A stretch of 64,000 bases of DNA, filler included, from Reclinomonas americana ATCC 50394 (GCA_048213135.1; 15 parts of 15 records of this genome joined end to end with filler, not necessarily neighbours in it); one strand, 5' to 3'. Shown: positions 590 through 60,404, counted from the first letter of the whole stretch. Notes: generated from the letters alone by a model not told the origin. Translations and numbers: made by a program.

Positions 590-1038
590 GAAAACATGTC
601 CAAGGTCACCAACTTGCATCGCACAGGTTTGCTCGTCATCGTGCTGTCGTTCTCCTAATGTACACTGACGCGCGCTCACCCCCCCGTCTAGTGAGCATCC
701 AGTACGCCGACATTGAGGGGTGCGTCCTACATGCCTGTCTCTCTCCTCTTCTCGCACTTGCTTACCTTCTCTCTCCCTCCCCTCTCTTCTCATGGACACA
801 GATTGCTCAGGTTCTGGCATTATTGCTGTGTGCATGTGAGATGCAATGTGCTTCTCCTCTCTGACCGTTCGTTGTTCGCGATTGCAGGAAGAACTGTGCA
901 CTGGCGACAGTGTGGTACGAGGTGCGTGCGATATGCATAGTTGAGCATGCGTGCAATCTGCCCGCCCTCATCCGTCATTGCGCAGGTCAAGCGTCGCGTT
1001 CCTCCAAACGAAGCGGCGGCTCCCGCCAGCGGCGGTCG
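590..1038 (+). CDS. Fragment of an unidentified multi-exon gene (about 5 short exons)
   Basis: Series of short segments bounded by cag/tag acceptors and gt donors (ENMSKVTNLHRT, VSIQYADIEG, LLRFWHYC...). No family recognised. Confidence 0.35.
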
Positions 1039-4984: not shown

Positions 4985-7321
4985 ACACGTTCTGCTACTC
5001 GACATCAAGGATCGCGCGTTCCGTGCACGACCCATTCCGCTGCGGCAATCACGAGCATTCGTGTACCGTGACCTTGTGCTGTCGGAGCTGGGACGGAGCC
5101 CGCTGGAGGTCGACGAAGACGCGCTCACCAGCTTGCTGGTCAAGGAGGTGCGGATGGGTGTGTCTGTGTGTGTGCGGGGTGTGCGGACCTGCCTTTTTAG
5201 TAACAATATCTCGCCGTCACAGGTCGATGACATGATCAAAGAGGCGACCGCCAAAGCACCACCCGCGGATGTGCTCGAGCGACACCCGAGCCTGCGACTA
5301 CCACTCATTCGGTTACGAGTCGACTACACTGGCGGCTATCTGTCACTCCTGCCGCAGCGGTTCGGGCAGCGCTACGTCGGCAAGGTGAGTCATGCTCGGA
5401 ATTGGCGGACTGCTCACCTCGGGCTCACGTGCTGCACGAGCTCCACAGGTGGCCAATCCCACCGATGTGGTCTCGTTCATCCGTCGCACCACGCGGCGTC
5501 CCACGCAGACGCTTCCCTCGGTGGTGGTGCCGCCCGTGATGCATGGCGATGAGGGCGAGGTGCGTGTGCTGCTTCGTTCTGAGAAGTGTTCTCGCCGCGT
5601 CTCACAGCAGGTGCGAGCAGGGCAGCGGTGTACGGATCGAGGACATGGTGCTCGACTACTTGGCACAGGATGCCGCAGGTCTGCGAGTGTTGGAGAGCGC
5701 CGATCTCACAGAGGCGTTGCGCGAGTTCGTGGATAAGGACAGTGCCGGTGCATTTGCAACGTACGTACTTGTGGTTTCTTCGTGCGCGCAGTGGTCGGCG
5801 TGTGTGTCTCACACAAGGCGAAACAGCAAGGTCAACGCCCAGCTGGAGGCGCGTCAAAAGCTGGTGTGGAGCATGTGGAAGCGCAAGCAAGTGTCGGATG
5901 CCGACAAGACCGAAGACGACGTGAAGAAAATAGTTGTGTCGGCCTCTGCAGTCGGTGTTTGTTTTAAGAAAACGCTGCTGACGTTCATGGTGTAGGTCGA
6001 TGAGATTCTGGACGAAAGTGCAGAGGCACGGAGGCAGCAGGCCACAACTGACACCGCGAGTGCCCGATCATCGGCGGCACCGGCGCTCAAAGGTGCTGCC
6101 GAGGGCGGCGATCGGCGGGACGACGAAGATGGCGACAGCGACGCACCACCAGTCTCGGTTGCGTACCGTACCGCAGCAAGCGTAACGCACGTGCTGTAGT
6201 CTCACTCCGCACCACTCGCGCAGCACATTCCGCTGCTGGGCAGATCGGCGCTTGGCGACGACGACGATGGTGGAGCAGGCGAGGATGAAGACGAGGCACC
6301 GAAGAAAGGCGGTGGCAAGAAAGCAGCCGGCAAGAGAGCGACAGCCGCTGCGCCGCGCAAGACGGCTGCAGCGTCCAGAAAGAAGGAGGTGGTGGCTGAC
6401 GAGGACGACGCAGAGAGCGACTTTGGCGACTCCAAATCAGTGGTGAGTGAGCTCGGGTTGTCGGCTACACTTCCGGCATCGCTGCTCATGATCATCATCT
6501 GTGGTTGCAGTCTGGGAAAAAGGGTCGTGGCAAGGCGGCGCCGGCGGCACGCGGAAAAAAGGCCGCGAGTAGTGGTGGAAAGAAGGCGGCGGCTGCGACC
6601 AAGACAGCTGGTCGAAAGCGCGCTCGCGCACAACAGTGCGTTTGGTCGTCGATGTGCGAAATGTTGCCACTTGATCTCATTCACCGTCAGCAGATCCGAG
6701 GACGATGACGACGACGGTGATGACGGTCATGACAGCGATGTGAGCGAGGTCGTCGTGCCGCCATCAAAAGCCGCACCACCGGTTCGTTTGTTCGTGCGCA
6801 TCTCCTCCCTCACGCCGGCGACTCAGATCACATGCGTTTAAAAAAACAGCGACGTGCGGCAGCCGCAGCCGCAGTCGCAGCCATGAGTGAACCGATGGAC
6901 CAAGACGACGATGTCGTGGTGCTGGGCGACGGCGACGATGATTTCGAACCGGTCGCCAAGTCGCGCAAGAAGAGTGCCAGGTTCGTATACGCGCACAATG
7001 TGTGTGCGTTGCATCCCAACACAACACCCACCGTTGATCATTCTCGCAGTCAATCGGCGTCCTCTTCCCGAGGAGGTGGTCGACGCAGCGGTCGAGTTTC
7101 GTGAAAGATTATCATCGCTCTGCGCACTCCTGTTTCTTCTCTTCCTTCTCACCGTACCGCCCGCAACGTATCAGAGCGACGACGAGTATGAAGACGTGGA
7201 CGAGGACGACGATGTCAACGTCTCCAATCGCCCGCTAGAGCCGTCGACCGGTACAAGTACGCAAAAGAGTGTGAGGCAAGAGTACGGGCAGGCCCGAGGG
7301 GGGCGCGCACGTCGAATGTAG
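4985..7321 (+). CDS. MRE11: MRE11 double-strand-break repair nuclease, C-terminal part (5' truncated), multi-exon
   Basis: Spliced sequence contains HVLLLDIKDRAFRARPIPL and [39 protein letters not shown] (Mre11 capping/DNA-binding domain), then ALREFVDKD and a charged disordered tail ending GGRARRM*. Confidence 0.93.
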
Positions 7322-24211: not shown

Positions 24212-26122
24212 CGGACAGTATAAGGCGGCAGTACGCACCAGCCGTTCGTACTCGATGGATAAAGGCCGAAATGAAGCACGCCATGCTCGTCATCTGTTTC
24301 GCGCATGGCGATCGTGTGCGTCAGCCGAGTGGTGGGCAGGAGAGCAGGAAGCAATGTGACTCACCGACATGTAAAACGTCGTTAAACCTATAAAGAACAC
24401 ACCAAAGTCGACACTCGTGAAGAAGTGCTGCTGCAGCACGTACTTGCCGAGCACCACGAACAATGCCGATGCTGCAGTCCACACGACGTGCGGTCAGCAG
24501 GCAGCCCACTCCACACAAACACACACACACACATGATTGTGAGAAACACAGACCGAGGACTCCGATAAAGGAGCCAAACAGCAACCACGTGGACCACATG
24601 GGGCCATCCTGAATTGTGTCGCCGAGAGTAGGGCACGTGAGAACAAATGACAAACAATAAGAAGAGGGCTTCACCCAAATACACACCAAAAGTCCCATCA
24701 TGGCCAACCCCTGTCGCAGCCCGCTTTGCTTCTCGGCAACCACCTGTCTCACGCGCAAGTGTGAGTGGGCGAGGAGGCCGAGTGGGAAGCAGCGTGCGGT
24801 AAACGGGAACAAACCATGTGAAGAATCAGCACCAGACTGAACATGGGCGCGGTGATGAACCAACCCGCGCCACCCTTTGCGACAACTGCACACACACACA
24901 CATACGAACAGTAAGTCACGGAAAAAGAGCCAACGAGCGACGAGGGGCGTGCGCAGCGCAACTGTCGCGATCAATAGGTCTCGCGTCAATCTCCGGGAAG
25001 CCCTCCACGTGCAGCGATATGCGGCAGTTGCCAGGAGCTGTCACAGCCAGCACAATGAGCGGTAGCACAGATGAAGATTGAAAGCAGGCGACGCACCGGC
25101 GTTGCACACGTTGTTTTGGCTGTACTTGAGAATGTGCGCCTCGGCAAGCGACACAAATGCCTGTGGCGTGCGGTCGTTCGTGACATTGAAGACGGAGGTG
25201 ACCACCGGCAACTCCATGACCCACGAGAACAGCAGGCCTGTACCACACACGTACACGGAGACAAGAAAGATGTGAAACTGCCACATAATGACAGAGACGA
25301 GTCACACATGCACTCACCAACATAGGTAGGCCCCTGGTTCTTTCTGTGCATGTAGTCGACCACGGTGAGTACACGCCGGAGCACTTCCACGCACACACGC
25401 ACACACACATACACAACTTCATAAAGTCTTTCAACTCGGTCTCACTGGAGAAGCCGACGAGGCCTCGCGGAGTCGGATCTGCAACACTCATTCGTCGGGG
25501 CTCCGCGACAACCACACACACACACTGATACAACACACAAAAACCACGCACCATCGAGCGCCTGACTGCGTCTGCGCTCCGCCACCGTCAGTCCAGTGAC
25601 CTGCTGCAGCCAGTGCATCGTGTCTGTCACTCTTGCGTCGCCGTCGGGCGCATAGGCCACTGTCACGCAGTTGGCCTCCTGCACGTGGTACATACTTTAC
25701 TTGCTGTGTCACCCGCCAAGTCAGCAGGCGGCGAGAGACAACGCAACTTTGCACTGTTGCAGAGTGCCAATGTCGGCCGGAGTCACCGAGTCGACTTGTG
25801 CACCGCGCGTGGGATTGATCTTGACAGCAGCAGTAATGTGTGTTGGCATTCTCATCATTGATCTTTTGTGTCAACACACACACACACACGCACGCGCACC
25901 TTTTGCATCAGGAAGATGAGGAAGATGATGAAGACGGGGGCTATGAGGTGCGCCAGTGTCACTTTCAGGCTGCGTGTCTACTCCGACCCCGCAGAAAGAA
26001 TAAGTCAGATATAGTGAGAGAGAAAGAGTGCGTGTGCATCAGCAGCACAAGGAACCCACCCACACGCAAAAGTGCTTGATGCATAGCACCCAGAACTGAC
26101 TGAACCACGCGAGAATCCACAT
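24212..26122 (-). CDS. ABCA-subfamily ABC transporter, N-terminal TMD/extracellular part (3' truncated)
   Basis: MWILAWFSQFWVLCIKHFCVWTRSLKVTLAHLIAPVFIIFLIFL, then VAYAP, GFSSETEL and VVAEKQSGLRQGLAMMGL (ABCA V.EK....R..L..MGL motif). Confidence 0.88.
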
Positions 26123-28765: not shown

Positions 28766-31312
28766 TCAGCCAACCAGTCCGTTCTCCGCCACAAGTCGCA
28801 CCATTTCAGTATGTCCGGATGACCACTGCTTCCACGCCTGGCTGGCCACGAAGCGCGGGAAGCTGTCGGCACGCAACGTTCTCATGACACTCTTCACGGC
28901 CCCATCAAAGAGCGACAGGTAGCTCTCCACGACGGCAGTGACTCCCTCAGTGGGAGACGTCTGTGGCTGATGAGCACCCTCGAACGCCTGCCGAATACGC
29001 AACAGAATGCCACCCGACAAGTTCAGTTCGCTGATGCCTGGTGAGCACGCGACGAGCAGTCAGCAATGTAATGAGCAGTATCAACGCCGGTGCACATAAG
29101 GGTTCCACCATTCTCTTTCAGGTACTCCTCGTACATGGCGTGGGCGTGTCGGTGAACATCGGCAGCTGACCGCGAAGCCGACGGCATCTGCAATGTCGTG
29201 CTCTGTGAGGACACGAGAAGCAGAGAAAGAGAGAGAGCGCCAGTGGCGACTTGCGCTGCGTCGCACGAGATCTCACCTCACGGAGTTTATCAATGGCGTC
29301 CATGAATGTGAGATTTTCCACACTGACAGGCAAGCATGCTTTTTTTGAGGAACGACGGCACATCGTAGTACACAGATCTAGGCAGAGTGCGCACCTGAAC
29401 TCGCCGACCAGATACCTACACAACACAACTGTGAGTGCATTCATCGATCAGTGCCTCGCAAGTACGCTGCGCAACTGTCGAAACTGCTCCCGCGCCTCCG
29501 ACGTGCTCATCACGTACTCAAACTGCGTAGTCGACGCGTCCATCAAACTTGCGCCGAGTTGACTGCCCTCGCGTGCGCGAGAAAACCCCTTGAGGGTCGC
29601 GTTCCACGCACGTAGTCGCAGCAGTGGAAGCACAATCGGCACCAGTACATGCACACAAATCAATGTCGGCATCATCACATCGGTCGCCACCTGCAAAGGA
29701 CCAACGACAAGCTTCTTGTAGTCGACCAGACTCAATATGGCGGCTGTGAGACTGAGCGGCACGCTGAATATTGCGTTCACCAGCAGCCTGCAATGTGCAG
29801 CAGCAACACACGCGCATCATGACAGTCACAACCTGCATGAGGTACTATGTGTCGGCGCATTCACGCAACTCAATACGGTTCGAAAACACATCTCGCACGC
29901 CGCGAATGAGCCAGGCACACTGAGGTCGCACGCACATGTCAGCCATCTTGGAAGACAGCAAGCAATGCTCTCGCAGCGCGCACCAACAGGTATCCCGCGC
30001 TCAGAGTGACAATCGTGTATGCACTGGCTACGACTGTGTTACTCTCACTCGTGGCGGCCGCGTGGAAGAATGGACACCAGGCCAGAACATCGCGCTCAAA
30101 CGCCACAATGTCAGCCTGCTCCTCGCTCTCGGTGGGCATCGGTACCTTATTCGTGCATGAAGGGCGTGAGAGGCACACACATGCACACACACGCACACGC
30201 GCTGGCATGCAACGAAACGAACGGTCCAATGGCCACGGCCAACACGAGGACGTACATGATGGTGAGTACGACAGTCAAGCCGGCGAGTATCAACAGGAAG
30301 CGCCCCTCGCTGCACGCAGCGGTCGTCATTAAGTCACCGCTCGATGAGCATCACAACTCGTCGCACCCTCGACCCACCTCCACGCTCGCGCACGACGTAG
30401 ACGGGCCACCACTGCGGTGTTTGCATTCATATTCTCGGCTTCCACTCCACCATCGATAGCCTTGGTGAGACTGACCAGTGATAGTCTCCTTTGTGCTCGC
30501 ACTCGGCCGGCATCAAAGACTATCCACAGGCGCACTCTGCATCAAACAAAAGCGTGAAAATCAGCAACACGCGTGACAAACATCAGCTCCACACCGCTTG
30601 CATACTCAACGCCCTCAGCTGCAAACAACAACAACAAGTGAGAGCTATGCACAGCAGACATGCGGCGCGCGGCAGACGACGACTCACAATTGGGATGACC
30701 AACACCAGCGGAATGAAGACCAAGAAAGGAATCAGTTCGCCCCACTGTACAACACAGCGATCGCATGCACACTGTGAACAACGAGGAGTGGCATGGCGCA
30801 GTGCAGCAGGTGTGTGTGTGTGTGAGAGAGAGAGCACCACGAACAATTGCAGTCGGTGACAGCTGGTGCAGTTGCCCGCCGGCCACAAATCCCGTCGCCG
30901 TCACCAGTCGAGCAATAAGGGCACCCAATGCAAACATGGCCTGCACGGAAGCGCAAGCAAAGAAGGATATCAACACCACGAAATCCGAACATCGACGATG
31001 ATCATTCCTGTCATCAATGCACACACCTGCGCCCACAACATCCACCGAGAACGTGCCCGCATGATCTCGTGCTTGCGCAACAAGAAGTGCATCACCAGCA
31101 CCACCAGCACAACAGTCACGGCGATCGGCAGCACACTGCCCTTCGGTGAGAGTTCGGAATGTCTGTCAACAGTCAGTCTCGCACCCAACTCACATCTTTG
31201 CAGTCAGCTTGGATCGACCCGAGCGCGCCAGAGCCGCCGGGTCGTGCTGCAGCTCCAGCTGGTTCTCCCATGTCAGCAGACACTCGTGGTCCACATTGCC
31301 CGCCGAGGCCAT
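28766..31312 (-). CDS. Multi-pass membrane (7TM-like) protein fused to a C-terminal RGS domain
   Basis: Multiple hydrophobic helices starting IVLPIAVTVVLVVLVMHFLLRKHEIMRARS. RGS motifs FRQYLVGEFSVENLTF, AMYEEYL, ELNLSG and LFDGAVKSVMRTLRADSFPRFVAS. Confidence 0.85.
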
Positions 31313-32592: not shown

Positions 32593-33208
32593 CTATAGGT
32601 AGGGTACTAGAACGTAGCTGGCGATCCACACCCACAGGGGCATGGCACGTTCCGGTGCGTTCGTAAAGGTGGATTCAGTGACTCGCTTTGCATGCGCGGC
32701 CATGTTGTTGAATTCGTCAATCATGGCACGACGCAATCGCGGCGAACGAGTGACGATAGCCACCTGCGACTCCAAGTCGCGGTCCACGGAACGGACACCG
32801 AAATTTGGTGAGCCGATGAGCGTCAGTCCACTGTCGGGGAACCACAAGCCCTTGGCATGGAAGGTGTACTCGGGCGCGCCTGACGGTGTCGAGGTCTCGC
32901 GTGCCCGCTGATACTCCCACAGACGCACCACTGGTCGTGTGAACCGCGAAGCTCGCAAGAAGAATCGTCTCTCGATCTCGCTGTAGCAGTGCGGCAGATA
33001 CCGCGAGATGCCTTTGCCGTTGAAGAAGCCATTTGCCTGTCAATCACGCTGTGAGGCGCATAAACACACGCACGTCAACAACTTGACACAAGAGACGCAA
33101 CTCTCGGTGCAGCCGTGATAATGTCAACCTCGCACGGCGACGACCGAGCTTTTTCGCCCAGAATCACCATTTCGTACTCCTTGGTGATGTTGAAGTAGCT
33201 GTGGTGAT

Positions 33209-34673: not shown

Positions 34674-37600
34674 ATGAGTGATTTTGTCACTGTGAAACCC
34701 AAGAAGCGGGTTGGCGCATCGCCTGCCTCTTCCTCTTCTGGTGGTGGTGGTGGTGGTGGTGGTGCCGGTGGCGGCAGTGCAAGACCAAAAAAGCACAAGG
34801 GAGGGGAGAAGAATGCCTCTGGTGGTGGAGGTGGGAAGCGCAATGGAGCAGCTGGAGCAGGTGGTGCGGGTGGTGCGGCTGCTCCATCGCCGGGGCAGAC
34901 ACGACCGGTGAGTGAGTGGGAGTCACTGTCACGCGCTGAGCTGAAGACATGTCCTGGTGACATCACCAACACCCTCTCTCGCTCTCGCGCGCGCTCTCTC
35001 TCTATCTCTGTGTGTGTATGCGCGCGCGTATGTATGCGTGCTCACTGCTGCTCTGTGCGCAATACACGCAGAGACGCAACAGTGAAGGTTCATCGTCATC
35101 AGCGTCCTCCGCAAAGCCGGAGCAGCAGCAGCAGCAGCAGCAGCCTTCGAGTTCACGCAAGTTGCGTGCATGTCCTCGCCACGCACACACACCCACACAC
35201 ACGCGTCTGTGTGTCTGTGTATTGCCCGAAGAGAAAGATGCATTCTTCGAATCTGTGCGACTGAATGAGGAGGGGCATTACAGGAGTGGTAAGCGACGAG
35301 GCAGCGGTCAGCAGCAGTCGGCTGCGGCGGATGCAGCTGCGCCGGCGTCACTGGTGTCCACTGGTGTGCCTTGTTTTTGTGAGTTGTGTTTGTTTGTCAC
35401 ATTTGCTGAGTGGTGGTGCGTGCACGCGCGCAGCGCACCAGTGGCGATGGGAGCGTGAGCAGGCCACGAACTCGGCCTCGTTTGGCCGCTTCCTGCACAC
35501 GTGTGTGCGCGTCAAGAACTGCATGTGGGTCATTGGTGGACGACAGGGTGTCGAGTACGGTCGCGATTTCCTGTGCTACGACTTTGGTACTGCTCACTCA
35601 CCACCGACGATGATGGATGATTGTGATGCTGATTGATGATGTGGGGTGCAGATGCAAGAAGATGGCGCACGGTGCCGATCGAGAGTCCGACGTGGGAGCC
35701 ACGCATTGGCCACTCGTGCACCGTCGTTGGCGACAAGAAACTGTACATTCTGTTTGGACAAACGCAAGACGGTACGCTGCTGGACGGCTCGCATGTGTTG
35801 GCCTACGATAGCGGTCAGTGCTGTGGTTTGTGTGTTTGTGTGTGCGTGTGGCCTGCTGACGAGAGCACTTGTACGGCCAGAAAACGACGTGTTCAACAAG
35901 TTGGTGTGCACCGGCGACGTGCCCTGCGAACGTGTGTCACACAGCTGCACGCTGATGGGAACCAACAAGCTGATTGTCTTTGGCGGGCTTTCGAAGAACC
36001 CCGAAAGTGGTGAATGGTTCTACCTGGACGATGTCTACGCCCTCGACCTCAGTTGCGGACAATGTGCATGCGAGGTGGTTGCATTCTCTTTCTGTTTTGC
36101 TTAGTTGCTCTCCTCGCACAGACACCTTTGTGTGGTCCGCTCTCAACATGGGCAGTCCAAAGCCAACAGCGCGCTGTGGACATGGAGCTGTGCTGATTGA
36201 CGATCACTACATTTTCGTGTTTGGCGGCTTGACGCGCCACGGTCACAGCGCCAATCTGTATGTCATGGATCTTGGTATGCGACACACCTCTGCAGCTTCT
36301 GTTGGTGTCACTTGCTGTGACTCAGAAAATTGTGTGCGCACAACAGCCCACTTGCAATGGACGCCGGCCAATGTGTTGGGTGAAAAACCGCCGTCCATGA
36401 CTGGCATGTTGGTGGCGTACTTTTCGAATACCAAGGAGGTGGTGATTTTCGGCTTTGGCGAGCCAACTGTTTATTCGTTTCAAATAGGTGCTGTTCTTTG
36501 TGTGCATATATTCGCGTGTGCGGCGTCTCATTTCGCACCTCGTAGACAAGGGATCGTGGCGCAAGCTCAATGTGGCAGGCAAGTGCCCGCGTGCGCGCAC
36601 GCATGTTGGTGGTGTGCAACTCGGCAACGCACTGTTCGTATTTGGCGGCCAGAACGAGAACTCAGCTTCGACCGAGTTCACCATCCTGACCAACCAGCCG
36701 GGCGACGTTCGCACACAAGTGCGGGAGGCTGGAGAAGGCTCTGGTTCCGCACCGCCTCCCTCTCCTCCAGCGCAGACGGTTTGTCGATTCATGCGAACGC
36801 TACACTTTGCTGTGTTTGCGCGTGTCTGACGTGTTGCGCAGCTGCCGATCCGCTTTGAATTTCACGGCCGAGCACGGCGTGATAATGTGGCAGCTGACAT
36901 TTCTTTCAACAACATTCTGCGACGCGTGCAAGATCTATGCCAACTTCGCGATGTGCCTGACTTGTCGTATTTCGATGGCCCTTCGCGCATTCACATTGTG
37001 ACCGAGGTTCGTCTGCGCCTCCTGCTGTCGTGTGCGTGAGTCTGTGTGTGCATGTGACTTACCCTTCTCTCCCGTGCGTGCAGCATGAGTGGCGGCTGTG
37101 CGTGGAAGATTTTCAAAAGTCGGGCGAGCGAAGCATGCATTTGGTTATCGAGCAGCGAGTTGCGCAGCCAGTGCCAAAGCTATGCAATTTCAACATTGTG
37201 TTACTCAATCGCGTGTGTTGTAGCAACCGAACCGACCTGCCACAGCCACCGGTGGATTCGCCTCGTCTTCAACCGTTGGTGGCAACGGTCGCAATTACAG
37301 TGGGAGCGGTAGCAGCAGTGCCAGAGTCAGCGACGAGCAGTCGGGTGTTGCCGTGCAGTCGTACCTGCCGAGCAGCTTGCGGCGGAGTGATGGCACTCCA
37401 CATCGGTGGACCAAGGGGTCCTTGCTTGGCAAAGGAAGTGCGCAGTCCGTGTCTCCCATGTTGTTATTGGTGGTGCAAGTATCCTTACACGCATGTAGGT
37501 GGTGGTGTGGTGCATCTGGCGTTGGATTTGGATACGGGTGCACAGTTTGCCGCGAAAGAGCTGGAGTTGGAGCGCATCAAGGGCTCCGCTGATCAGAAGC

Positions 37601-40024
37601 AGAAAGAGGTTTGTGTGCATTCAGTGCTCGGTTGTCGGTGTGACACGAGGTACTCAACCGCGGTTTGCGGTGCACAGTTGGAAGCGTTTGAGAGGGAAAT
37701 TGCGCTGATGAAGCAACTGAACCACCCCAACATTGTGCGCTACCTCGGCACCGAAGTCGACGACAAGAAGTTGTATATCTTTATGGAGTACTGCCCAGGT
37801 CTGGAGATGCAGCGTGTGCGCTCTTGTCTTTTCTCAACTCTCAGCTCACGTGCCACCCATATCGATCGCAGGTGGCTCTCTGTCGACGCACGTGTCCAAG
37901 TTTGGTCAGCTGTCGGTCACTCTCATTCGCAAGTACACGCGGGACATTCTCAGTGGCCTCAAGTACCTGCACGATTCGGGATACATCCATCGCGGTACGT
38001 GCAATGTGCACTTGATTGTTAGTGTGCCAGAAGAGTTGTTTTGACGGGATGAGACTCGCTAGATTTGAAGGGTGGCAATATTCTGGTCAACACCGACGGC
38101 TCGATAAAACTCGGCGACTTTGGTTGCAGCAAGCGACTGGTTTGTGTTCATGCCGATCCGTTTGTGAATGTTGGCATGCGACTCTCTTTCTCACGACAAT
38201 GTGTTATTTGTTGTTTTTCCTTCCCCGTGCACCACATACTAGGATGGTGAGTGTGAAGTAGATTGCTGGCGACTGCAGGTTTCTTTTGCTCACGCGTGCG
38301 TGCTCGCTGCAGACTCGAGTGTCGTCAACAGCCTAGTCGGGACGCCGCATTACATGGCACCAGAGGTGGTGACTGGCGAAGGATACAGAAAGTTACTCGC
38401 AGTCCACAGTGCGCGCATATCGTGCGATCCACGCACTGACTCGCGTGTCATTGTCGTCATAGATCTGTTGACATTTGGAGCCTCGGGTGCACCATCATTG
38501 AGATGGCGTCGGGCGATGTGCCGTGGTCGGAGCTGCAGCTCAGCCATCCTCTCAAAATCCTGTATCGTCTCGGTACGGCCGAGCTTCGCGAAATCCCCCA
38601 AATCCCGCCCTCGCTGCAAGGCGACGCTCGCGACTTTGTCCTGCGTTGTCTCGAACGGTGCGCCAGCTGAAATAGTGTTGCATGGCGCTCTTGGTTCATG
38701 TTTTCATTCGATTCGCATGCTTGTGTCTATGTGTGCACCACAGCGATCCGGAGAAGCGATGGACGTGCGAGCAGCTGATGGATCACCCGTTCCTGCAGGA
38801 CCACGGAGAGGGTGGCGCTGGTGGGTGTTGCGAGTGCTCCTTTGTAATCGCAATTGGTGCTGTTATTTTTTGTCTCACGGGCGTGAGACTACGCAGCGGC
38901 GCAACCTGTTCGTGGCCTGTCATACGCCTCGGCATCTCGCGGCACACGGTTGACCTCGCTACAGAGCGGCAACTCAATCACACCTGGCGCAGTGGCAACG
39001 GTGCCCCAGGGTGTCTCGGCCTCTTCCACGGTGGCAAGCTCGATCGTCTCTTCGTCGACACTTGACGAAGAAGCGGTGGAGAGCGAGTCCACCGGGGAGG
39101 ACGACACGGATGCTATGCAGCGGTTCCAGGATGAGGTCGATGGTGACGAGTATGACGTTGACGATGGTGGCGATGCCGAATACGAAAGCGGCGGCAACGA
39201 CAGCGGCGACGAAGGCGACGACGATGACAACGAAGGTGCCGAGGACGACGAATCTGAGAAGCGCAGTGGTGGTGCGTGCAGCGTCTATGTGTGTGTATGT
39301 GCGCGCGCAGCGTCAGGTCTGAGTTTGATGCGCAGGAGAGAAACCGCCATATCGCACAGGCTTGTCAGAACGAATGGCTCCGGTGTCCCTGCCGCCAAGT
39401 TGCGACAGTGTAGTGTCACCGACGCGTGTGACAAAGAGACACGAGTACGCTAACACTTTTGTGCGTTTCGAACAGAGCCACAGCAGAGGCGGCCACCACC
39501 CGCCGATATCAACACTCGGTCACATCATCAGTCGCAATCGTCGTTCCAGAGCACACCTTCGTCGTCGTCGGAGAACGGCAGTCAGATGGATCTCAGCAAG
39601 TCCATGGTGCGAGCGCGTCAAACCAACACCAATGCGTGGGGTTCGTCGGCTGTCTGGCGTGTCTGCGGCATTGGCGATTCTCGGCTCACAACTGATTTCT
39701 TTTTCGCAGTGCGTTCCCGGTCGTGGGCTGAGATGGCATCGCTGACGGCTGCGTCGTCGCCGCCGGCGGAAGACCCCGCCAGCCGGCTCAATTCCACCAT
39801 GCCTCCGACGGCGGGTCGTGGTCGTGGAAACGCTGGCACTGGTGGCGGTGCTGGTGCTAGTGGCACGGTGGGTGCCGGTGGAGCGGTGGGTGCGAGTGGA
39901 ATGCATGCGTCGAGAAGCCAGGGTAGCATGGTGAGTGCTGCGTGCTGCATTGCAGGTTGCGCGACGTGTGTCTAATTCGTCGATCTGTTAGCAGGCTGTA
40001 CGACGAGCGGATGGCGAGGAATAA
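34674..40024 (+). CDS. STE11/MEKK-type MAP3K with an N-terminal Kelch propeller and a PB1 domain
   Basis: Kelch repeats (RIGHSCTVVGDKKLYILFG, RVSHSCTLMGTNKLIVFGG, RCGHGAVLIDDHYIFVFGG). PB1-like exons at 36842-37170. Kinase motifs WTKGSLLGKGSGG, AAKEL, HRDLKGGN, DFG, GTPHYMAPE and DIWSLGCTIIEMASG. Confidence 0.92.
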
Positions 40025-57851: not shown

Positions 57852-59172
57852 ATGCAGCGCACAGGCGGGCTTTTGCTGCTGTTTGTGGTGCTGTTTGCTG
57901 TGGTTTTGGTCGCCTGCACTCAGCATGCAGATGCATCGTCGTCACTGCGTGTGAATGTCGGCATGGAGGCGGAGGCGGAGGAGGATATGAGTGTGCTTGT
58001 GCGTCGTCGTCGAGAGGCGGTGCTTGCTGAGTTTCAGCGCACGGAGGTGATGGATGATGGCACTGTGCGCATTACGCCGGTGAGTGTGCAGTCAGCATTC
58101 AGGTCGGCTTTCCAATGCCGCTCATGCAAAGTGTCTCGTAGATTGATGACTCGGAGCGAGTGCCGCTGTGGGAACGCGCCTCTGTGGCCTCGGAGAACGA
58201 CACGCTGGGCAAGGATCCGTCGCCGTACTGGTCGTGGGTGCCGCAGTTCAAGGCCGCGGCTGTTGTCGTTGCGTGTGTGTGTGCGTGTGTGTGTGATTGT
58301 ATCGATTTGTTGACTTGTTTCACTTTTTTCCTTGCATTAGAGCGCCACTGTGTCGTGGAGTGCGCCGTGCTTTGCGCAGAACAACGCGACGCTGACGGTG
58401 ACGGACGATGGATGGAAGCTCACGCATGTCGCCGCACATCCGCGCACTCTTACTTGCGACGATGTTGCGTCTGTCTCCTGTGGTTTTTCCCGGAGTGTAT
58501 CGCGCGTGTGTGTTTGACGCCTCTCTTAGCTGTACCTCCTGGCGACTCCGGAGCACGCGCACGTGCACAATGTGTTCACGCACGGCGAGAAGCACGGTAC
58601 TGGGTGCGAGTGCGTTCTCTGCATCAGTTGTTGGACAAGCTCATTGTTCTTGTCGCAGTGACTGGCGGCAGCTGGAAGGACGGCGAGAAGGCTTGGGTGC
58701 TGCAGGTTTGTGGTGTCGTGGTGGTGTGCGAGCTCCTCTACCCTCCCTGCGCTTACGTTTGTGCATCCGTGTGCGCAGAGTGGTCTGCAAATCTTCAATT
58801 TCCCCGACGGCATTCTCGGCACCGTGGTCGACGCTTGGGTGCGTCATTCGCCGTCTGTGTATCACCTTCCTCTCTCTCATGCACACCTGAATAGGATACC
58901 TTCCGCCTGTTCACCGGCCGCAATATGCCCAAGGACAACATTGCTTTCCTGCGCGAGAAGGCCGGCCTGGTGTTCAACCCACGCAGCCAGGGCATGCTCA
59001 ACATTCCTTTCGACCAGTTCCAAGTTTCGGTTTCATGTGCAGGCAGGCAGTGTAAGTGAAGATCTCACTCTGTCGCTCACCTTTGTGCGTCTGTTCTCCT
59101 CGACGCAGTCTGGCGACTACCTCGGCATCACTCGCCTGGACGGTCTCGACCCCGTGATCATGTGGAACGCTG

Positions 59173-59218
<46 letters not shown>

Positions 59219-59945
59219 ACATATGTCGTCACTGTCGCTTGTATATCTCACATGCATACGTTACAGGCGGCGTGTTTGGTGAGACAGCTTCGACTACCTA
59301 TTGTCGATGTTGTCGATCTGGTTCTCACGCTTCGTTGCAGGACACACTGCCATGGTGCTGGTGATTGACGGCGTCAAGTACGTGTGCGAGGTGAGTGAAT
59401 TTAGGGTGTCCACGAGATTCGTCAGCGTCCAACTCCGCGAGTTGTGTCTGTGCAGAGCACCGACTTGGATCCCTTTGGCAAGGTGCGTTTCTTCGCCGCA
59501 CCCACTTTTGTTGCTCAGCGTACTGATTGTGTGGGATGCAACAGGCATACTGGCCACCGCCATGTTGCGTCTCGTGATGGAACCATTATGTGTGTGTCTC
59601 TGTGTGCATGTGCTAACTTATCGTGTTGCAGAGTTCGTGCCAGTCTGCCGCTGTGTATCGTGCTTGTCGCTGTTGATTGACTTGTCTTGTGCTTTTCTTT
59701 ACGTGTGTTTGCAGTGGTGTCATCCGGGTTCGTCGTTGATCTGTTTCCTGCACCGTATCTCATGTCCCTCATGCGCTGTTTGTCTGTGCTTGTGCGAACA
59801 GACTCCTATTGCCCAGTGGTGCGCACGACCGCTGAAACTTGTGTGAGAGACGTGCACTCATCGCTGATACCATGCAGGTTCAAGCAGGCGCAGCAGGCCC
59901 AGTACATGGTGGTGTGGGCTCGTCTCAAGCCCGAGATTCGTGCTC
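57852..59945 (+). CDS. Secreted protein resembling permuted papain-like NlpC/P60 (YiiX/YaeF-like) amidases (3' truncated)
   Basis: Signal peptide MQRTGGLLLLFVVLFAVVLVAC. WSAPCF and QSGDYLGITRLDGLDPVIMWNAGGVFGHTAMVLVIDGVKYVCES fit the (SGD...H.A....V.E) His-first pattern. The expected catalytic Cys would lie beyond the gap. Confidence 0.6.
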
Positions 59946-60045
59946 NNNNNNNNNNNNNNNNNNNNNNNNNNNNNNNNNNNNNNNNNNNNTTAATTAATTA
60001 ANNNNNNNNNNNNNNNNNNNNNNNNNNNNNNNNNNNNNNNNNNNN

Positions 60046-60404
60046 AGACCTTGTTCTCTGCCACATGTCGCTGCAGTGCTCGCTGCACTTGCACCGGCTT
60101 GACCACGGATGTGACCACGTCCCAGTTGGAGACCAAATCACGCAGTTGCACAACAAACTGTGTGGCCCCATGTAAGTGCCACACACGTGCACACGCGAAT
60201 GCCACACAAGAGCGAGAGACTTGCCTGCTCACTCAGTGCCGTGACGAATGGCTGCACATTGGCCACTGGCCACCCATTTGCCAGTGCAAGGTCAGTGAAC
60301 ACCTCCGACACGGGCGTGATGGGTGTGTAGTGCACGGCCACCACCGACTGTGTGCACACAATGACGACCACCACTGCCACCAGCAGCAACAGGGAGGCAC
60401 GCAT
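60046..60404 (-). CDS. N-terminus of an unidentified secreted protein (3' truncated)
   Basis: Signal peptide MRASLLLLVAVVVVIVCTQSVVA. Second exon is joined in frame by a GC-AG intron. Confidence 0.6.

Follow-up and report, generated by a model that had tools for sequence, protein, structure and literature searches.

Exons consisting of a single nucleotide are very rare in nuclear genes. In Arabidopsis thaliana, the APC11 gene contains such an exon, which was demonstrated by cDNA and by reporter assays (Guo and Liu 2015, PMC4674806), and its authors favour a sequential removal of the flanking introns by intron definition and a recursive-like step (PMC4674806). A 9-nt exon of a potato invertase is cited in the same work, for which the downstream intron is removed first (PMC4674806). 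The one-nucleotide exon of the P450 gene CYP621A in Fusarium was presented by its authors as the second example (Nelson and Syed 2026, PMC12940212), and according to the account given there, these two are the only nuclear genes in which a one-base exon has been documented (PMC12940212). For the exon of CYP621A it was proposed that a cryptic site rescues a 1-nt deletion (PMC12940212).

A related situation is the ratchet point of recursive splicing (AG/GT), where a donor likewise comes almost immediately after an acceptor and the overlap of both sites leads to a stepwise removal. A ratchet point is, however, an exon of zero length that leaves no base behind, whereas at the locus described here one base would be retained that is needed for the reading frame, and this locus is thus not a member of that class. 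An exon of one base pair has reportedly also been found in the mitochondrial cox1 gene of placozoans, but this is an organelle gene with another kind of intron and another splicing mechanism. A database of plant micro-exons is also said to exist.

The locus of this study is situated in what we call the window, which is the whole stretch of 64,000 nucleotides that was analysed; its G+C content is about 0.56, and it stems from an intron-rich eukaryote. A lone A at position 59632, placed between two short introns, is most likely a real and used one-nucleotide exon, and the best explanation is very probably that it serves as a constitutive one-base exon of a spliceosomal GT-AG gene. It would then probably represent a further case of the known, very rare nuclear one-nucleotide exons of which APC11 and CYP621A are examples. 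Two independent lines back this reading, namely the modelling of splice signals, in which it gives the top parse, and the homology, which yields an ungapped block in the homologue, and both argue for the interpretation that the original prediction had put forward. The extreme rarity of one-base exons is an a priori point that counts against it.

With APC11, the locus has in common that one exonic base, needed for the frame, lies between two introns of a nuclear GT-AG gene, and a sequential removal by intron definition would apply at 59632 as well (PMC4674806). It differs from APC11 in being known purely from sequence and homology, in another gene of another organism (PMC4674806), and also in that its introns are very short (68 and 82 nt) and that its host gene has many other micro-exons. 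The resemblance to CYP621A lies in the position of the base, which in both cases is the middle of a codon within a conserved motif (PMC12940212). The Fusarium exon is a G (AGGGT) that is found in at least 20 orthologues and was confirmed by SRA reads, whereas the base at 59632 is an A (AGAGT) and is known from a single locus, in genomic sequence. In this respect 59632 is comparable to CYP621A before the reads: the phase and the intron-free relative together make a complete argument at the level of sequence.

Table 1. Features of the host gene around the putative one-nucleotide exon, in positions of the window
Feature	Position	Strand	Description
Host gene	57852..59944	+	16-exon model; also recovered by the self-trained gene finder
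Exon 11	59456..59482	+	27 nt, STDLDPFGK; STD aligns to STD of P0124
Intron 11	59483..59544	+	62 nt, GTGCGT...CAACAG
Exon 12	59545..59563	+	19 nt, ends ..CCGCCAT; AYWPPP and Tyr base T; YWPPP aligns to P0124
Intron 12	59564-59631	+	68 nt, phase 1, donor GTTGCGT, GCTAACT at 59612-59618, acceptor TTGCAG
Exon 13 (putative)	59632..59632	+	single A, middle base of Tyr codon T-A-T
Intron 13	59633-59714	+	82 nt, phase 2, donor GTTCGT, ATTGACT at 59676-59682, acceptor TTTGCAG
Exon 14	59715..59727	+	13 nt, TGGTGTCATCCGG; last Tyr base T and GVIR; G-[VI]-I-R aligns to P0124
Intron 14	59728..59801	+	74 nt, GTTCGT...GAACAG
Exon 15	59802..59818	+	17 nt, TPIAQ and two bases of a W codon; TP..QW aligns to P0124
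Intron 15	59819..59877	+	59 nt
Exon 16	59878..59944	+	runs into gap; aligns to P0124 residues about 297-316
Rival donor GTGATG	59574..59579	+	judged unused; 2nd percentile of predicted donors

The host gene starts with an ATG at 57852 and encodes a signal-peptide-like N-terminus, followed by many short GT-AG introns. In our model it has 16 exons, and its 3' end is lost at a gap (59947-60046); as the gene is cut by this gap at 59947, an intact reading frame could be followed only up to there. The gap itself is an N run with TTAATTAATTAA in its middle and looks like a contig joint, beyond which an apparent gene follows on the opposite strand. From exon 8 onwards, the exon lengths are 64, 12, 50, 27, 19, 1, 13 and 17 nt, and the last exon has 67 nt or more, so that the coding part of exons 8 to 15, 203 bases in all, comes with 8 introns. 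The remaining 13 introns of the gene are 56-94 nt long, and its remaining 14 junctions are in frame and aligned to the homologue. In intron 8 (59173-59266), the donor is immediately followed by a (GT)n microsatellite some 45 nt long.

At the site itself, TTGCAG-A-GTTCGT spans 59626-59638, so that just one base separates the AG of an acceptor from the GT of a donor, with all strings and coordinates as the original prediction had given them. Both flanking introns are complete, with a donor, a branch-site-like motif, an acceptor and a usual size, as judged against our own predicted introns. With the donor at 59564 and the acceptor at 59631, any exon of more than one base would read T+AG, which is a stop. 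PPPYG is encoded in no contiguous frame of the window. The possibility that the Tyr codon arises from one non-canonical intron was considered as well and rejected, as neither exon edge is adjoined by an A.

The splice signals were evaluated with a semi-Markov gene finder, which combines codon-position Markov chains and a chain for introns with matrices for donors and acceptors and with explicit intron lengths, and which was trained iteratively on the window with 59500-59720 left out of the training. Errors occur with this self-trained, unvalidated gene finder, as exon 9 was mis-modelled with a stop across a split codon. Tiny exons carry no penalty in it, and a ranking of parses by signals alone would therefore not settle the matter. 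Under a flat length prior of 35-600 nt, 116 introns were predicted, 100 of them with at most 103 nt; in the host gene, this prior led to the merging of neighbouring short introns, and the one-base exon was skipped together with three neighbouring micro-exons. A second length prior was then taken from the first pass, with a weight of 14% on the flat 35-600 tail. It resulted in 193 predicted introns (184 of at most 105 nt and 9 of 140-549 nt), and the unconstrained parse of the whole window with this prior, the region still being left out of the training, called the one-base exon at 59632.

The 178 introns predicted in the other genes of the window are tightly sized around a median of about 66 nt, and 9 of them exceed 110 nt. 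By these predicted lengths, the two pieces of 68 and 82 nt are typical, as had been assumed, and one undivided intron would, with its 141 or 151 nt, stand out as unusually long. Among the donor hexamers of all 193 predicted introns, GTGCGT was counted 24 times, GTGTGT 21, GTTGCG 18, GTGAGT 16, GTTTGT 12, GTTCGT 9 and GTGATG once, whereby these figures and all percentiles given below rest on our own predicted introns, errors included. Both donor types of the locus are thus in use elsewhere, as anticipated, with 16 of the 18 GTTGCG donors residing in other genes. GTTGCG is the third commonest donor hexamer and acts as a donor in 18 of its 92 occurrences on both strands, which is similar to the ratio for GTGCGT (24 of 128), and GTGATG is almost never a donor (1 of 62 occurrences in the window). 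The host gene contains two more GTTGCG donors (58268 and 58464), the junctions of which are ungapped against the homologue. The GTTGCG(T) class, with examples at 58464 and, on the minus strand, at 33101, 42610 and 23957, resembles the main consensus with an extra T after the GT. For intron 2, the manually assigned GTTGCG at 58268 gives an ungapped junction against P0124, while the intron of the gene finder (58273-58342) adds one residue.

Compared with the 178 predicted introns of other genes, the acceptors at 59631 and 59714 fall into the 84th and 97th percentile, respectively, and the donor at 59633 falls into the 55th. The donor at 59564 is found in the 13th percentile by a position-independent matrix, a point against the one-base exon, and it owes its good rank to the hexamer count. 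A branch-site motif nCTCAY (CTCAC or CTCAT) was derived by expectation-maximisation from 182 introns, with a median start 25 nt from the 3' end. The branch-site-like gctaac that had been noticed before the acceptor is indeed present in intron 12 as GCTAACT, with its start 20 nt before the 3' end and a score in the 28th percentile; intron 13 has ATTGACT, with its start 39 nt before the 3' end and a score in the 22nd. Neither motif scores above the lower third, which was counted against the one-base exon.

Competing parses were enumerated between two fixed points, where exon 11 starts and where exon 15 ends, admitting every in-frame, stop-free GT-AG parse; the signals were retrained for this on the 178 introns of other genes only, and the donor term was based on hexamers. 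By these signals, the model with the one-base exon ranks first among 3,750 parses, and the parses that contain the one-base exon at 59632 reach a joint posterior of 0.965, 0.966 and 0.961 under three parameter settings. An AG-N-GT occurs a single time within the 151-nt interval between the donor of intron 12 and the acceptor of intron 13. The whole window contains 450 such sites on both strands, two of which reach both observed scores, as compared with 0.24 expected if the scores were independent; at the level of the window, the acceptor/donor pair alone is only mildly unusual. When 40,000 intron-like sequences of 151 nt were simulated, an equally strong AG-N-GT with halves of at least 45 nt was found in 34, and the N was an A in 3, and within the interval the layout does exceed the chance expectation. 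Two AG-T-GT sites on the minus strand (34139 and 25524) have scores equal or nearly equal to those at 59632 and are not used as one-base exons by the gene finder; the donor score at 25524 stems from a GT repeat.

The evidence from homology is independent of the signal model. A query frame made of exons 6 and 8 with intron read-through returned a single protein, P0124 (534 aa, unnamed). When P0124 is compared with the full spliced protein, the match extends over residues 105-347 with 154 bits (E 1e-46, 92 of 247 positions identical, 37%, 5 gapped positions), and it crosses exons 2-16, most of which had no role in its discovery. The 12-nt exon 9 and exons 11, 12, 14 and 15 all fit into this alignment, and the lone gap in this region is one residue before YW, in a variable stretch. 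At the site, P0124 reads ESTD-(8 residues)-YWPPPYGIIRTP-YDQW, and the corresponding stretch under the one-base-exon model is ESTD-(7 residues)-YWPPPYGVIRTP-IAQW. Only with this exon is the block of YWPPPYG and [IV]IRTP ungapped, as the model then gives YWPPPYG-VIRTP where the relatives have YWPPPYG-IIRTP.

Homologues with WPPPYG had been named beforehand as a test of the one-base exon, and YWPPPYG followed by IIRTP is found in all five available sequences, which are P0124 and its four cluster mates. The twelve-residue block is invariant in these five cluster members, which are 86-92% identical to each other and count as one lineage, at 37% identity to the host protein. As the cluster member P0125 is an open frame of 327 aa within a contig of 388 kb, no intron interrupts the block in that organism. 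As only the inclusion of the A recreates the WPPPYG of the intron-free relative, we read the A at 59632 as a probably genuine exon. In addition, 4,665 GT-AG parses with introns of 30-400 nt were ranked by global alignment to the corresponding P0124 segment. The two top parses (scores of 81 and 78) both contain the 1-nt exon, the second being the model reported here, and the best parse without it scores 62.

Several alternatives have to be weighed against a constitutive one-base exon, and the one that survives best, even though we consider it very unlikely, is that the exon is included in part of the transcripts, whereby skipping or alternative sites would cause a frameshift and the step would be leaky or regulated. 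An artificial 1-nt exon in the potato invertase was skipped in 33% of the transcripts, as described in PMC4674806, and neither the donor at 59564 nor the two branch motifs are strong. No sequence feature speaks for regulation.

Slightly less likely still is a model in which the first intron extends from 59564 to 59633 with a GAG acceptor, followed by a 19-nt exon (59634-59652) and a second intron from 59653 to 59714 with the donor GTGTAT, resulting in the protein ..PPPFRASLPLGVIR... This is the best parse that avoids the 1-nt exon (posterior 0.023-0.024), and its introns of 70 and 62 nt are both typical, but it stands 5.3 bits under the best parse. It would have to use an acceptor with a strongly disfavoured G at -3 (-2.9 bits in the matrix) and to pass over a better CAG acceptor 2 nt upstream. 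In the protein, it would insert six residues into the conserved block and turn the Tyr into Phe, which lowers the match with P0124 to 146 bits and the alignment score to 58, compared with 78 for the model with the one-base exon.

We assign the same very low likelihood to the view that a base is missing, either by an assembly error or by a deletion in a dead gene copy, so that a single intron of 151 nt (59564-59714) would be removed and the AG-A-GT within it would be coincidental. The window is indeed a draft sequence with N gaps. Such an indel would, however, have to sit exactly at the exon edge and to coincide with an unusually long intron, of the kind that makes up 9 of 178 (>110 nt), and it would also require by chance a strong AG-A-GT that splits this intron into two pieces of typical length, as in the 3 of 40,000 simulated sequences mentioned above. 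The 14 other junctions of the host gene, which are in frame and aligned to the homologue, also stand against an error or a decayed copy.

The least likely alternative is the donor GTGATG at 59574, which is present as described earlier, keeps the frame and needs no tiny exon, as one intron of 141 nt to 59714 and an exon 12 of 29 nt would give the protein ..PPPCCVSGVIR.., but this donor lies in the 2nd percentile of those in other genes, begins 1 of the 193 predicted introns and stands 10 nt downstream of a GTTGCGT donor of a common class, its intron is exceeded in length by 9 of the 178 in other genes, the parse is found 17-22 bits below the best one (21.7, 20.5 and 17.1 bits, with ranks 254, 164 and 91, in the three settings), and the protein would lose the Tyr and have a three-residue insertion after PPP in the block that is invariant in five of five sequences (145 bits against P0124).

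For the constitutive one-base exon, a splicing mechanism can be envisaged in which the A supplies the middle base of the Tyr codon, between a first base at the end of exon 12 and a last base at the beginning of exon 14. Phases 1 and 2 of one codon would thereby be occupied by two ordinary short introns, each with its own signals. The U1 site of the intron 13 donor, from -3 to +6 (59630-59638), is expected to overlap with the acceptor AG of intron 12 (59630-59631), and for this reason the two introns could probably not be committed simultaneously and would be spliced out in succession, by intron definition. This sequential removal would be much like recursive splicing, and either order would leave a normal splice site for the second step, because after either first removal the remaining intron would adjoin an ordinary exon. 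The product ..YWPPP-Y-GVIRTP.. would then carry the conserved block of an unnamed eukaryotic family.

As to how such an arrangement came about, the likeliest origin appears to be that two introns were gained separately, at a distance of one base, in a region of extreme intron density. This would fit the locus better than the rescue of a deletion by a cryptic site as proposed for CYP621A (PMC12940212), since both halves have the usual size of an intron. Introns 12 and 13 were compared with the window and gave no similar sequence except stretches of GT repeats, hence no intron family or introner-like copies, and nothing points to a mobile intron family.

The host protein belongs to an unnamed eukaryotic family. 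Against Pfam, P0124 gave no family at E up to 1, and the read-through frames of the host gene in the window gave none either. Searches for further relatives gave the following: exon 7 (43 aa) as a query retrieved no longer proteins, and by phmmer against 1.84 billion representatives it gave one match only, P0003. This match was rejected as a tandem-repeat artefact, as it is a 692-aa tandem-repeat translation that was matched in 9 stretches. On metagenome contigs, none of 590 pattern matches for exon 7 and the read-through and none of 12 for P0124 was confirmed, nor was any of 18 for the P0124 cluster on prokaryote genome contigs; P0124 as a query found nothing on viral contigs, a degenerate DNA pattern of the shared motif had no match on genome contigs, and a profile of the P0124 cluster found no relative among the PDB sequences.

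The family is possibly related, at a great distance, to the permuted papain-like hydrolases of the YiiX/Peptidase_C92 type, although this link is weak and unproven. YiiX of E. coli (K-12 record) is a member of Peptidase_C92 (Pfam PF05708, 167.8 bits), and a blastp comparison of the spliced protein with this YiiX gave a weak match (E 8e-4 for the pair alone). Local HMMs built from the E. coli members or from 87 YiiX relatives gave E values of 0.2-3 among 776 sequences and were not significant. An hhalign comparison of the P0124 cluster with 33 YiiX relatives had a low probability of 15% (E 0.0017), with 93 columns in register, and in this alignment the motifs GD, H, E, TP..W and G.PY are in register. 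A catalytic Cys would be expected downstream of the His; P0124 has Cys-containing stretches downstream, which are candidates at best, and in the window this part of the gene would lie beyond the gap at 59947. The nearest neighbours of P0124 in the Atlas are eukaryotic clusters of 'hypothetical proteins' with 523-576 aa and scores of 0.96-0.97, and the cluster at rank 10 bears PF05708 on 13% of its members, both of which we take as leads only. Among known phyla, Streptophyta is the commonest in the Atlas clusters to which this comparison points. An AlphaFold2 model of P0124, made from the five-sequence alignment, had a mean pLDDT of 33 and was too poor for use, and in a MAFFT alignment of exon fragments to E. 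coli YiiX the fragments were misplaced.

If the exon at 59632 is real, it would add a third nuclear case from another gene family, and its genome abounds in introns of 60-80 nt. Exon definition could not be required for its inclusion, as a single base gives exon definition nothing to act on, and the locus would provide a concrete substrate for studying the order in which two overlapping splice sites are used. Ordinary gene predictors are expected to break such genes, as the gene finder with the flat prior did here.

The host gene also has exons of 12, 13, 17 and 19 nt that are supported by the homologue. It is conceivable, although we regard it as rather doubtful, that the organism handles ultra-short exons routinely and that intron gain has been so dense that introns fall within one codon. 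If this were true, about 2% of the internal exons would be no longer than 1-4 nt, which is far above any described genome, and the organism would be a natural system for obligatory sequential, intron-defined splicing. The gene finder proposes five further candidates for tiny internal exons, each between introns of usual size: two of 3 nt (29830-29832 on the minus strand and 36776-36778 on the plus strand), one of 4 nt (38243-38246, plus strand), one of 8 nt (5792-5799, plus strand) and one of 9 nt (802-810, plus strand), and some of these may be artefacts of the length prior. The 4-nt candidate falls into a kinase activation loop, at a point where the frame is kept only with one extra base (mod 3). 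It is part of a predicted gene at 34813-40024 on the plus strand, possibly two merged genes, with apparent Kelch-like repeats and a protein kinase domain (Pfam Pkinase, in one frame). At the 37994/38054 junction of the same gene, the prediction reads HRD-SLD-LKGGN, which has three residues more than the usual HRDLK, and the acceptor was probably mis-called.
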